NCBI RefSeq assembly: GCF_003334815.1
Contig: NZ_QOWO01000011.1
From: Escherichia coli
GTDB lineage: Bacteria; Pseudomonadota; Gammaproteobacteria; Enterobacterales; Enterobacteriaceae
Strand: one strand, 5' to 3'
Length of the DNA stretch: 64,000 nucleotides
Below the pieces are notes generated by a model, which searched no databases, was not told the DNA's origin, and worked only from the letters and a program-made list of their open reading frames with translations. Below are positions 41,108-50,628 of the stretch, one piece after another. Made by a program: the position numbers and the translations under genes. How positions within the stretch are numbered: the first letter of the stretch is position 1; each line of letters starts with the position of its first letter.

Positions 41108-41165
41108 TTTTGCCTCGATTTCTTTTCTATTACCGCCTACCTTAACGATTCAGCAACCCCGCTTA

Positions 41166-46224: not shown

Positions 46225-48315
46225 TTACGCCTTCGAATCCCGCAACTTGCGACTCAGCCAAATCCCGTGATGCGGTCGCTGACGCCATGCCATCGACGAA
46301 ATGGTGTGCATGGTGTTCAGATGACCAATAACCCGCTGTAAATGCTGCTCCAGCGTACCTGCCGCGCCTTCGTGCGGCTGCATCTCCGGCGCATCCATGA
46401 TATTGGCATCGCCAGAACTACCCGGTTCGTCATACTCCAGTCGCTGCTGACAACGCTGAATGGCGATTTCACAAGACTGTAAATACTCTTGTGCCAGTTC
46501 AGGTGGCAATGCCCGGTGTTCCCGCGCCAGCGTGGTCATGGCATTAATATGCTCAACAATAAACTGGCTGTGCGTTACCCACAGTTTCATATCTGCCAGA
46601 TAATGGCTGTTAAACGCCGGTTCCTGCATCGCCTGATTCAATGAGTTATACAGAGTGTTATGTGCCTGATTTACCCGCATTCGCTGCCAGGCCAGTGGCG
46701 TAGGTTGCGGATCCTCGCTAAGAATCAAGCGAATCGCTTCCTGATAGGCTTCTAAAGCATCATGGGCGTTTTTACGCAATAACCCGCTCTGCCACTGCGG
46801 CCACAGCCAGACAGTACCGCCGAAAGCAATTAAACAACCAATAATGGTATCGATAAGACGCGGAAGGATGTATTGCTCGCCGTTCAACCACAATAGTTGC
46901 AGGGTATACACTGCGGTAATAGTAAAACCGACCGTCGCCCAGCCGTAGTTTTTGCGCAATATCAGGTAGCTGGCGAGGGTGGTAATCAGCATCAACGTCA
47001 GGGTGTAACCTTCGGGAATTTTAAAGTGCAGCGCCACGCCCGCAATGATTAACCCGACCACGGTTCCCACGGAGCGATTCACAATCCTCAGACGGGTTGC
47101 GCCATAGCCATTTTGTGTCACCAGCAATACCGTCATCAGGATCCAGTACGACTTCGGCAGATGCAGCGCGGTGCCCATCAGGCTGGCAACGCTTAACATC
47201 ACACTGAGTCGTCCGGCATTGCGTAGCGCCGGAGACTTTAGTGACAGATAACTTTTCAGCGCCGGAAGTAATGGCATTCGCCGCTGTTTATCGGCCAGTA
47301 AGTCACGGGCATAGAGCGGTTTTTGGGTGCGCAGCACGCGGGCGATGCGGCTGAAATGCCAGTAGCAGAATTGCCCAACCGGATTATCCGGATGCTGGCG
47401 GGCGATTTTTTCCAGTGCGCCAATTTGCTTTTCCATCGTAAAACGCGTTGGCAGGCGATGGTAAAGAATGTCATCAGCCAGCACGCGCAGGCGAGCGGCG
47501 ACGGTTTGCGCATTCCAGCGGATAACTTCTTCCGCATGGCTACGCTCGACCAGCTTTTGCACCTCTTCCGGCTGATGCAAACTGACCGAAATATGTTCCT
47601 GTAAATCCAGCGCCTCCTGGAAAATACGCAGCATCCGCTTGTAGTCAGTATTATTTTGCGCGGAAAGCATATGCATTTGCTGATAGCACTGGGTAATTAG
47701 ATCGACCGCTTTTTGCTGGCGCACCAGCAGCGGCGGCAGCGCTTTTTCAGGGTCGGTGTGCTGGGTAAGCAGGCTGTATTTGGCTTCACAATAATCTGCC
47801 AGTTCACGGTACAGCAGACTTAGTGACTCGCGCAGCGGTTGTTCGCGCCAGATCCAGAACCAAAACCAGTTAAACAATCCGTACCAGAGAGTGCCCAACG
47901 CATAGATGAGCAACGGTTCCCAGACCGGCATGTATCCCGCCAAACTGAGGGTAAAAATGGCGGCGAGCAGCGATGCAGGAAGCAATTTTGCGTGCAATGG
48001 CCCCAGCTCAGCAGTGACGCCAAGTACCAGCGTTAATCCGGTCAGCAAAAAGGGCAGGGGAACATCTTTTGCCAGTAGTAGCTGTGTCAGCAAGCTACAG
48101 GTGGCAAACAGCGACGCACCAATGATTAAGCGTTTGAAAAAACGTTTATGAGGCGTATCAAGGCCCGCAATATTGCAACAGGCAGGAACGAGGGAGAAGA
48201 GCAGACCGAATCGTAATTCGCCAAGCATTAACCCAACGGCCACGGGCAAACATAGCACCAGCGTTTGTCGAAGTGCATAGTTGATATCGGGGTGATAAAT
48301 CAGTCTGCGCCACAT
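46225..48315 (-). CDS. yhfK: Putative membrane efflux/transport protein YhfK (about 696 aa from the ATG at 48313-48315)
   Basis: ORF track 46225..48327(-) begins at a TTG; first ATG gives MWRRLIYHPDINYA; polytopic membrane protein; exact start uncertain. Confidence 0.88.
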   Translation of the reverse strand: MWRRLIYHPDINYALRQTLVLCLPVAVGLMLGELRFGLLFSLVPACCNIAGLDTPHKRFFKRLIIGASLFATCSLLTQLLLAKDVPLPFLLTGLTLVLGVTAELGPLHAKLLPASLLAAIFTLSLAGYMPVWEPLLIYALGTLWYGLFNWFWFWIWREQPLRESLSLLYRELADYCEAKYSLLTQHTDPEKALPPLLVRQQKAVDLITQCYQQMHMLSAQNNTDYKRMLRIFQEALDLQEHISVSLHQPEEVQKLVERSHAEEVIRWNAQTVAARLRVLADDILYHRLPTRFTMEKQIGALEKIARQHPDNPVGQFCYWHFSRIARVLRTQKPLYARDLLADKQRRMPLLPALKSYLSLKSPALRNAGRLSVMLSVASLMGTALHLPKSYWILMTVLLVTQNGYGATRLRIVNRSVGTVVGLIIAGVALHFKIPEGYTLTLMLITTLASYLILRKNYGWATVGFTITAVYTLQLLWLNGEQYILPRLIDTIIGCLIAFGGTVWLWPQWQSGLLRKNAHDALEAYQEAIRLILSEDPQPTPLAWQRMRVNQAHNTLYNSLNQAMQEPAFNSHYLADMKLWVTHSQFIVEHINAMTTLAREHRALPPELAQEYLQSCEIAIQRCQQRLEYDEPGSSGDANIMDAPEMQPHEGAAGTLEQHLQRVIGHLNTMHTISSMAWRQRPHHGIWLSRKLRDSKA

Positions 48316-48320
48316 CGGGG

Positions 48321-48353
48321 GAAACAAAATGGCGCGCTACCAGGTAACGCGCC
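48321..48353 (-). terminator. crp intrinsic terminator
   Basis: Stem ggcgcg / cgcgcc (48331-48353) immediately 3' of the crp stop, followed on the minus strand by attttgttt. Confidence 0.7.
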
Positions 48354-48365
48354 ACTCCGACGGGA

Positions 48366-48998
48366 TTAACGAGTGCCGTAAACGACGATGGTTTTACCGT
48401 GTGCGGAGATCAGGTTCTGATCTTCCAGCATCTTCAGAATGCGTCCCACGGTTTCACGAGAACAGCCGACAATCTGACCAATTTCCTGACGGGTAATTTT
48501 GATTTGCATACCGTCCGGGTGAGTCATAGCGTCTGGTTGTTTTGCCAGATTCAGCAGAGTCTGTGCAATGCGGCCCGTCACGTCGAGGAACGCCAGGTTG
48601 CCCACTTTCTCTGAAGTGACTTGCAGACGACGCGCCATCTGTGCAGACAAACGCATCAGAATGTCCGGGTTTACCTGAATCAATTGGCGAAATTTTTTGT
48701 ACGAAATTTCAGCCACTTCACAGGCGGTTTTCGCACGTACCCATGCGCTACGTTCCTGGCCCTCTTCAAACAGGCCCAGTTCGCCAATAAAATCACCCTG
48801 ATTCAGATAGGAGAGGATCATTTCTTTACCCTCTTCGTCTTTGATCAGCACTGCCACAGAGCCTTTAACGATGTAGTACAGCGTTTCCGCTTTTTCACCC
48901 TGGTGAATAAGCGTGCTCTTGGATGGGTACTTATGAATGTGGCAATGAGACAAGAACCATTCGAGAGTCGGGTCTGTTTGCGGTTTGCCAAGCACCAT
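48366..48998 (-). CDS. crp: cAMP receptor protein (catabolite activator), 210 aa
   Basis: ORF track; recognised as CRP; [14 protein letters not shown]. Confidence 0.98.
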
Positions 48999-49112
48999 GC
49001 GCGGTTATCCTCTGTTATAAGCTTTCTCCAGAGCCAGATAACGCCGCTGTCTCTGGATTGCCGAAATATGCTTCCCGCTACCTGGGAAGGGGCTATCAAC
49101 TGTACTGCACGG

Positions 49113-49134
49113 TAATGTGACGTCCTTTGCATAC
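49113..49134. promoter_or_regulatory. Candidate CRP site in the crp promoter/leader region
   Basis: aaTGTGAcgtcctttgCAtaca: good left half-site, weaker right half. Confidence 0.35.
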
Positions 49135-49299
49135 ATGCAGTACATCAATGTATTACTGTAGCATCCTGACTGTTTTAGCATAGCTTTCGCTTGGTGTCTC
49201 CTGGTGTCTCGCTTCAGCATGACCCAGGTCGCCTTCCGTTGCGCGATTTGGTTAGTACGCGTACTCTGTCAGGAAAATTGACGCAGTGGAGTAGCAAAA

Positions 49300-49704
49300 A
49301 TGCAAGCGCGAGTGAAGTGGGTCGAAGGGTTAACTTTTCTGGGCGAATCCGCCTCTGGTCATCAGATTTTAATGGACGGCAACTCAGGCGATAAAGCACC
49401 AAGTCCGATGGAAATGGTGTTGATGGCGGCGGGTGGTTGCAGTGCCATCGATGTGGTTTCGATCCTGCAAAAAGGGCGTCAGGATGTGGTCGATTGTGAA
49501 GTAAAATTGACCTCTGAACGCCGCGAAGAGGCACCACGCCTGTTTACGCACATTAATCTGCATTTTATCGTCACCGGTCGCGACCTGAAAGACGCAGCGG
49601 TTGCGCGTGCGGTTGATCTCTCTGCCGAGAAATATTGTTCAGTGGCGTTGATGCTGGAAAAAGCGGTGAATATTACTCACTCGTATGAAGTGGTTGCCGC
49701 GTGA
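49300..49704 (+). CDS. yhfA: OsmC-family protein YhfA, 134 aa
   Basis: ORF track; recognised as YhfA. Confidence 0.9.
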   Translation: MQARVKWVEGLTFLGESASGHQILMDGNSGDKAPSPMEMVLMAAGGCSAIDVVSILQKGRQDVVDCEVKLTSERREEAPRLFTHINLHFIVTGRDLKDAAVARAVDLSAEKYCSVALMLEKAVNITHSYEVVAA

Positions 49705-49758
49705 CTTAACTATCCCGTTGTGAAGCCGGATAGTATTTTATCCGGCGTAATAGCAGAG

Positions 49759-50628
49759 TTACTCGATTTTCTTTCCTTCCATCAATCGTTGCACCAGCGG
49801 CAGCATAATTAATTCCATTGCCAGACCCATTTTGCCGCCCGGTACCACTAACGTATTGATGTGGGAAATGAATGAGCCTTGCAACATCGCCAGCAGCCAG
49901 GGGAAATCGATCCCTTCCAGATTACGAAAATGGATCACCACAAAGCTTTCATCGAGCGACGGGATACCTTTTGCCGCGAACGGGTTTGAAGTGTCGACGG
50001 TGGGAACGCGCTGGAAGTTAAGATGGGTGCGGGAAAACTGCGGTGTGATGTAGTTGATATAGTCTTCCATTGAACGCACTACTGAGTCCATCACTGCTTC
50101 TCGTGAGTGCCCGCGCTCGCTGGTGTCGCGGATCAGTTTTTGAATCCACTCAAGGTTAACGATAGGCACCACGCCGACCAGTAAGTCCACATGCTGCGCA
50201 ACGTTATGCTGTGGCGTGACTACGCCGCCGTGTAAACCTTCATAAAACAGTACATCAGTGGGTTCCGGTAAAGGTTGCCAGGGGGTGAATGTCCCCGGTA
50301 CCTGATTCCACGGTACGGCTTCGTCGTAGGTATGCAGATATTTGCGAGATTTCCCTTTGCCGCTCTGACCGTATTCAATGAAGGTTTGTTCCAGCAGGCC
50401 GAAGTCGTTAGCCTCGGGGCCGAAGTAGCTGATATGCCGCCCGGCGTCGCGCGCTTTGCGGATCGCCATGTCCATTTCCGGGCGGGTGTAACGGTGAAAA
50501 CTGTCGCCTTCCACCTCAGCTGCATGCAGATTTAACTGCGCGAATATTTTACGAAACGCGAGGCTGGTGGTGGTGGTCCCCGCGCCGCTGGATCCTGTTA
50601 CCGCAATGACCGGATGTTTGGCAGACAT
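49759..50628 (-). CDS. prkB: Phosphoribulokinase homologue, 289 aa
   Basis: ORF track; P-loop VTGSSGAGTTT. Confidence 0.92.
   Translation of the reverse strand: MSAKHPVIAVTGSSGAGTTTTSLAFRKIFAQLNLHAAEVEGDSFHRYTRPEMDMAIRKARDAGRHISYFGPEANDFGLLEQTFIEYGQSGKGKSRKYLHTYDEAVPWNQVPGTFTPWQPLPEPTDVLFYEGLHGGVVTPQHNVAQHVDLLVGVVPIVNLEWIQKLIRDTSERGHSREAVMDSVVRSMEDYINYITPQFSRTHLNFQRVPTVDTSNPFAAKGIPSLDESFVVIHFRNLEGIDFPWLLAMLQGSFISHINTLVVPGGKMGLAMELIMLPLVQRLMEGKKIE

Follow-up and report, generated by a model that had tools for sequence, protein, structure and literature searches.

The crp-yhfA intergenic region holds two 10-bp units in direct tandem, TGGTGTCTCC followed immediately by TGGTGTCTCG (Table 1). The region lies within the window, which is the whole stretch of Escherichia coli DNA that was analysed (64,000 nucleotides). 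The first-pass annotation had reported a near-perfect 10-bp tandem repeat at 49192-49211, about 90 bp upstream of the yhfA ATG and about 195 bp upstream of that of crp. Its position is as claimed and the distances are right, at 89 bp from the yhfA ATG (49300) and 194 bp from the crp ATG (48998). Tandem Repeats Finder called the repeat at 49192-49210, with a period of 10, 1.9 copies and 100% identity. On the crp strand both units contain the hexamer GAGACA. As a repeat the segment is statistically not unusual and chance suffices to account for it: 10+10 repeats with at most one mismatch numbered four in the window (1.55 expected), those of 8/10 quality numbered 13 (16 expected), and a Markov-1 simulation gave a probability of 0.23 that 64 kb contain one or more exact 9-mers at period 10.

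Table 1. Features of the crp-yhfA region, and two further Cra boxes of the window
Feature	Position	Strand	Remarks
crp	48366-48998	minus	
crp-yhfA intergenic region	48999-49299		301 bp
CRP site I, TGTGACGTCCTTTGCA	49116..49131	plus	Centred at +41.5 of crp P1; autoregulatory, activates the divergent promoter
crp P1 transcription start	49165	minus	167-nt leader; from annotation and literature
5' leader of the divergent yhfA mRNA	49168..49299	plus	Repeat at about +24 to +43
Extended -10 of crp P1, TGcTAAAAC	49172..49180	minus	-15 to -7; from conservation
Repeat unit 1	49192..49201	minus	Crp strand GGAGACAC[C]A, -36 to -27 of crp P1; carries the putative -35 hexamer
Single-base difference	49193		G in the window, T elsewhere in E. 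coli searched; on the crp strand A to C at -28, a spacer position shortly after the -35 hexamer
Putative -35 hexamer, GAGACA	49200..49195	minus	-35..-30 of crp P1
Repeat unit 2	49202..49211	minus	Crp strand CGAGACACCA, -46 to -37 of crp P1; forms the half of the probable Cra operator nearer the promoter
Probable Cra (FruR) operator, GCTGAAGCGAGACA	49205..49218	minus	Centred near -46.5 of crp P1; presumptive exact-base placement
Likely CRP site II, GGCGACCTGGGTCATG	49218..49233	minus	Centred at -60.5; abuts the Cra box
yhfA	49300-49704	plus	
Cra box upstream of pck	2523-2536	minus	GGTGAATCGATACT; 0 mismatches to the consensus
Cra box in the nirB promoter	41141-41154	minus	GCTGAATCGTTAAG; 1 mismatch to the consensus

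The repeat coincides with the upstream part of crp P1. As a whole it occupies -27 to -46 on the crp strand, which reads GCTGAAGCGAGACACCAGGAGACAC[A>C]AAGCGAAAGCTATGCTAAAAC, the bracketed base being a private change in the spacer. The proximal GAGACA matches TTGACA at four of six positions, and a 17-bp spacer separates it from TAAAAC (49177..49172), with TG at -15/-14 in front of the latter. This -10 element ends at 49172, ahead of the start given by annotation and literature at 49165, where the RefSeq ncRNA 'ascrp' also ends (NC_000913.3 position 3485953). The crp leader is reportedly 167 nt long (Aiba 1982/1983), which likewise gives a start at 49165. By its geometry, the proximal GAGACA is the putative -35 of crp P1, down to a presumptive assignment of the exact bases.

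Crp P1 thereby departs from the canonical form: its -35 is weak, and its extended -10 has C as the last base. A promoter/terminator consensus scan returned nothing in 48900-49400, as the -10 of crp P1 lacks the final T (position 6 is C). Three other promoter arrangements were considered and rejected. The distal GAGACA, taken as the -35 of a second promoter, has no acceptable -10 at 16 to 18 bp downstream (AAAGCT, AAGCTA, GAAAGC); secondary crp starts presumably lie downstream of P1 and not upstream, which also argues against it. TATGCT (49182..49177) as a -10 is without a plausible -35 partner and lies 12 nt from the start, so that TAAAAC with its TG extension fits better. On the plus strand, the GC of a sigma54 -24/-12 motif (TGG..N..GC) is out of register by eye.

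In addition to its CRP sites, the crp P1 promoter system has Fis sites. CRP site II reportedly lies at -60.5 (Hanamura & Aiba 1992). In the window its likely counterpart is flanked by a conserved block, GCAACGGAAGGCGA...TCATG. Apart from the single base at -28, the locus is identical to the crp P1 described previously (Aiba 1983; Okamoto & Freundlich 1986; Hanamura & Aiba 1991/1992; Gonzalez-Gil 1998), and the known features can be recognised here: CRP site I (+41.5), the likely site II (-60.5) and, 3 bp from the crp start, the divergent one. Site I has been placed about 40 bp downstream of the crp start, which agrees with a start at 49165, and the existence of site II has been reported (PMC3050693). 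The divergent transcript, which expresses yhfA, begins on the other strand, 3 bp upstream of where crp transcription starts (bioRxiv 10.1101/2021.05.11.443715). In the RefSeq annotation of MG1655, the antisense ncRNA 'ascrp' (b4841) corresponds to 48887-49165 on the plus strand; it spans the leader and the first part of the crp CDS, stops at the start of P1 and leaves the repeat uncovered. The region is already known as the textbook crp promoter, and no new element is added to it here. The first-pass annotation was accordingly correct in placing the repeat where crp promoter and autoregulation signals lie, since the segment comprises the -35 region of crp P1 and a probable Cra operator, that is, protein-contacted DNA.

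Alignment to 5,426 complete E. coli genomes showed the intergenic region to be highly conserved. Its 301 bp had at least 99% identity to 5,382 of the 5,426, but never 100%. In alignments with one O157 and one K-12-like genome, the sole intergenic difference was G at 49193, where both have T. An 81-nt query had one mismatch in every full-length match, and the G allele was absent from all full-length matches in the 5,426 genomes. The lone match to this query at 99% or more was partial, and is probably an HB101 assembly with IS2 inserted at this point. An exact-match scan of 241 million metagenome records gave no instance of the G allele, while the T allele, as positive control, was present in 15 contigs. 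The window is collinear with K-12 MG1655, 49193 corresponding to NC_000913.3 position 3485925. The common natural polymorphism nearby, at 49150, is outside the repeat.

With T at 49193 the two units match at eight of ten positions and with G at nine, so the repeat is near-perfect here only because of the private base. The sequence reported by the first-pass annotation is therefore exactly right, whereas the near-perfection depends on a base that no full-length match among these genomes shares. The position affected is the least conserved in an alignment of 48 unique crp promoters, with T in 16, A in 12, C in 10 and G in 10 (0.03 bit). As -28 is unconstrained across species, the change from A to C is expected to be neutral and probably leaves crp P1 unaffected.

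The private base is one of several changes in the window. Relative to K-12 MG1655 there are 14 substitutions (13811, 16126, 17701, 18733, 25403, 26589, 28596, 28675, 31427, 35751, 40634, 44738, 49193 and 61506), of which at least seven (16126, 17701, 26589, 28596, 35751, 40634 and 49193) are also absent from the nearest genomes compared, 52F4 and NCM3722. Five of these seven private substitutions are transversions. In yhfS a perfect 50-bp tandem duplication (29335-29440; 2.1 copies, 100%), found neither in MG1655 nor in 52F4, the closest natural match, splits the gene into ORFs 29048-29437 and 29428-30183. Taken together, the private changes suggest a mutagenised or mutator source, or else a record containing errors.

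G at 49193 may not be biological at all. A sequencing or assembly error, or an altered source record, would mean that the near-perfect repeat exists in no cell. This is a possibility to be taken seriously, though we think it unlikely. It is favoured by the absence of G from the full-length matches in 5,426 genomes and from the 15 metagenome contigs, by the other substitutions absent from the closest relatives (mostly transversions) and by a duplication in yhfS that shifts the reading frame. However, a real private mutation, or a mutagenised or mutator laboratory lineage, would give an identical sequence picture. The question concerns one base only, and an error at this base is compatible with an explanation of the repeat by promoter elements.

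Conservation beyond E. coli was assessed with crp loci from 80 species of Enterobacterales and Vibrionaceae, each represented once. The motif GCTGAAnCGAGACA-N4-RAGACA-N17-TAMAAM was present upstream of crp in 54 of the 80 species, its fuller architecture being GCTGAA[G/A]CGAGACA-N4-[G/A]AGACA[C/G]-N~11-(A)GCT[A/G]TG[C/T]TA[A/C]AA. The 54 species belong to six families: Enterobacteriaceae, Erwiniaceae, Pectobacteriaceae, Yersiniaceae (Serratia, Rahnella, Rouxiella), Hafniaceae and some Morganellaceae. The spacing of the two hexamers is 10 bp in 50 of the 54; Arsenophonus and Moellerella have 9 bp, and Ca. Pantoea persica has 13 bp. The 48 unique promoter sequences that were aligned had been chosen by the motif, so part of their invariance is built in; this holds for AGACA at -34..-30 (48/48), which is part of the selection motif. 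Ten positions outside the selection were also invariant in all 48, namely G-53, A-44, C-18, T-17, T-15, G-14, T-12, A-11, A-9 and A-8. In contrast to this deep conservation of the hexamers and the -10, the rest of the repeat is not conserved: the four bases between the hexamers and about ten bases 3' of the proximal hexamer are variable. Across the 50 promoters with 10-bp spacing, the two 10-mers agree at anything from five to nine of ten positions, and the part common to both is the (G/A)AGACA hexamer only. These alignments show conservation of two elements in fixed register with the -10 and not of a tandem repeat.

An exact-motif scan did not find the architecture upstream of crp in Yersinia (two loci) or Vibrionaceae (four loci), nor in Providencia, Photorhabdus, Xenorhabdus or Proteus. 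In Yersinia this fits published differences in the regulation of Y. pestis crp, for which reports describe a lack of autoregulation, activation by PhoP and a 79-nt leader.

The element next to the -35 is probably an operator for Cra (FruR). The Cra consensus we take to be GCTGAAnCGnTTCA or RSTGAAWCSNTHHW (Ramseier 1995, Shimada 2011), with GCTGAA-CG as the strong half. Against RSTGAAWCSNTHHW, the crp sequence GCTGAAGCGAGACA agrees at 12 of 14 positions. The consensus is degenerate, and matches with two mismatches or fewer numbered 163 in the window against 140 ± 13 expected; as they are as frequent as by chance, the 12/14 match by itself lacks specificity. The GCTGAA half-site has been maintained: all 48 promoters have G at -53, a position outside the selection, and 54 of 80 species have GCTGAA-CG. 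Binding of Cra upstream of the sigma70-dependent crp promoter has been detected by ChIP-exo, in a study that also cites earlier reports of direct crp regulation (PMC5888115). Expression of crp did not change significantly in a cra deletion, as measured by RNA-seq (Kim et al. 2018; PMC5888115). A full-text literature search with the operator sequence returned nothing relevant. Most probably, GCTGAAGCGAGACA is the site at which Cra modulates crp transcription, and it is to 49205-49218 that we would assign the binding.

Two other Cra boxes in the window, those of pck and nirB, are of consensus quality and provide internal comparisons; they have G[CG]TGAAnCG in common with the crp site, and both genes we take to be Cra targets. 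The activating Cra site of ppsA is reportedly centred at -45.5 (Negre 1998), and the probable crp operator resembles it in its centre, about -46.5, and in adjoining the -35 on the upstream side. Like the Cra operators of activated promoters, it has a strong left half (GCTGAA-CG) and a degenerate right half. The right half differs from Cra operators in that GAGACA agrees poorly with TTTCA and yet occurs in all 54 motif-bearing species, although most of this hexamer belonged to the selection motif. It is kept much more strictly than a weak half-site calls for, which hints at an extra constraint that the proposed model does not explain.

We consider it very likely that the repeat is a juxtaposition of two separate elements of crp P1, the -35 and a probable Cra half-site, a reading in which the exact bases of both and the neutrality of the substitution are inferred. 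The proximal copy would supply the -35 hexamer GAGACA and the first bases of the spacer, would be contacted by region 4 of sigma70 and would work together with the conserved extended -10 TGcTAAAAC situated 17 bp downstream. The distal copy would form the weak half, on the promoter side, of an operator that is an imperfect palindrome (GCTGAAGC followed by GAGACA) centred near -46.5, through which Cra would modulate crp. Both elements happen to hold GAGACA(C) one helical turn apart, giving an 8/10 repeat in every other E. coli examined, and the private T-to-G change (A-to-C at -28) lifts this to 9/10 in the window. The core of crp P1, made up of the probable Cra box, the -35 and the extended -10, is kept in fixed register across much of Enterobacterales, which supports the physiological relevance of a poorly documented link from Cra to crp. 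The window itself carries a private base change in the promoter of a global regulator, at its least constrained position, -28.

The recurrence of GAGACA-N4-RAGACA, one helical turn apart in at least six families of Enterobacterales, might alternatively indicate a single functional unit and not a coincidence, for which we see a slim chance. One possible form of this is that the promoter-proximal Cra half doubles as a second contact for RNA polymerase, either as an alternative -35 or for alpha-CTD; if so, Cra and polymerase would compete or cooperate on a common motif. Another possible form is a regulator that binds direct repeats and uses both GAGACA copies. If the two copies do form one unit, the private T-to-G change could have been templated by the repeat, with the distal unit copied into the proximal one.

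The direct-repeat form can be made more specific, as a bipartite operator of an OmpR/PhoB-type or similar regulator serving crp P1 and/or yhfA. Operators of this family, such as the Pho box and the PhoP box, resemble the present segment in consisting of two direct repeats of 6 to 7 bp about one helical turn apart that overlap the -35. The 10-bp spacing in 50 of 54 motif-bearing species is in keeping with such an operator, as is the distal GAGACA, which is stricter than expected of a degenerate Cra half-site. In some lineages the seventh base is also alike in both copies (C/C in core Enterobacteriaceae, G/G in Edwardsiella and Morganella), but it disagrees in 30 of 50 promoters (A/C in 19, A/G in seven, C/G in four), and the agreement is confounded by phylogeny. 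Outside the hexamers, no co-variation between the 10-mers is seen. Moreover, the proximal copy sits exactly at the required -35 position and the distal one directly continues an invariant, Cra-like GCTGAA. By eye, the segment is unlike the Pho box (CTGTCAT-N4-CTGTCAT) and the PhoP box (TGTTTA-N5-TGTTTA), and we know of no OmpR/PhoB-family box that matches its sequence. The accessible literature names no such regulator for E. coli crp. In Yersinia PhoP does activate crp, but it is there that the GAGACA architecture was not found. A bipartite operator is thus distinctly improbable.

Cra is a LacI-family protein that binds an imperfect palindrome, and in the available literature it is the sole regulator placed here by experiment (ChIP-exo). 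This, together with the 5-9/10 agreement of the units across 50 Enterobacterales promoters, by which the repeat as such is not maintained, tells against the suggestion of the first-pass annotation that a regulator recognising tandem repeats binds at this point. As evidence against its own suggestion, that annotation had named strict conservation combined with a lack of protein occupancy; conservation is indeed strict, but the DNA is occupied by protein.

A role at the level of RNA is very improbable. The repeat is transcribed within the 5' leader of yhfA, where it reads UGGUGUCUCC UGGUGUCUCG at about +24 to +43 and could in principle form a structured or protein-binding motif. However, the leader folds no more stably than its shuffles (z = +0.24, with 120 of 200 shuffles as good), and the only Rfam matches in 48300-49800 at E ≤ 1 were two at chance level, both elsewhere. 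The two hexamers and the -10, in fixed register on the crp strand, form the pattern of a DNA promoter.

Copy number of the repeat was constant in E. coli. All 5,425 full-length matches aligned to the two-copy length, and test queries with one or three copies found no genome with at least 95% identity over their full length among the 5,426. The proposal that this is a slippage-prone or contingency sequence, whose copy number alters expression of crp or yhfA, draws on a direct tandem repeat inside a promoter with a 9-bp exact match in the window, but it has next to no chance of being right and is essentially refuted by this invariance, by a repeat of only 1.9 to 2 units that match at 8/10 in other E. 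coli examined, by a 10-bp spacing fixed across most Enterobacterales and by the fact that a changed copy number would break the register of the -35 and the Cra site with the -10.

The available literature contained no discussion of how the -35 region resembles, with a 10-bp period, the block upstream of it.

The structural variants of the region are IS insertions only. In an HB101 assembly (NZ_CP184671.1), IS2 lies within the proximal unit and its -35 hexamer, with a target duplication of GTGTC at the equivalent of 49194-49198; the CRP protein of this assembly is WP_001698625.1, in place of the usual WP_000242755.1. In E7476 (NZ_CP035817.1), an IS3-family element is inserted in the crp leader at the equivalent of about 49115, beside or within CRP site I.
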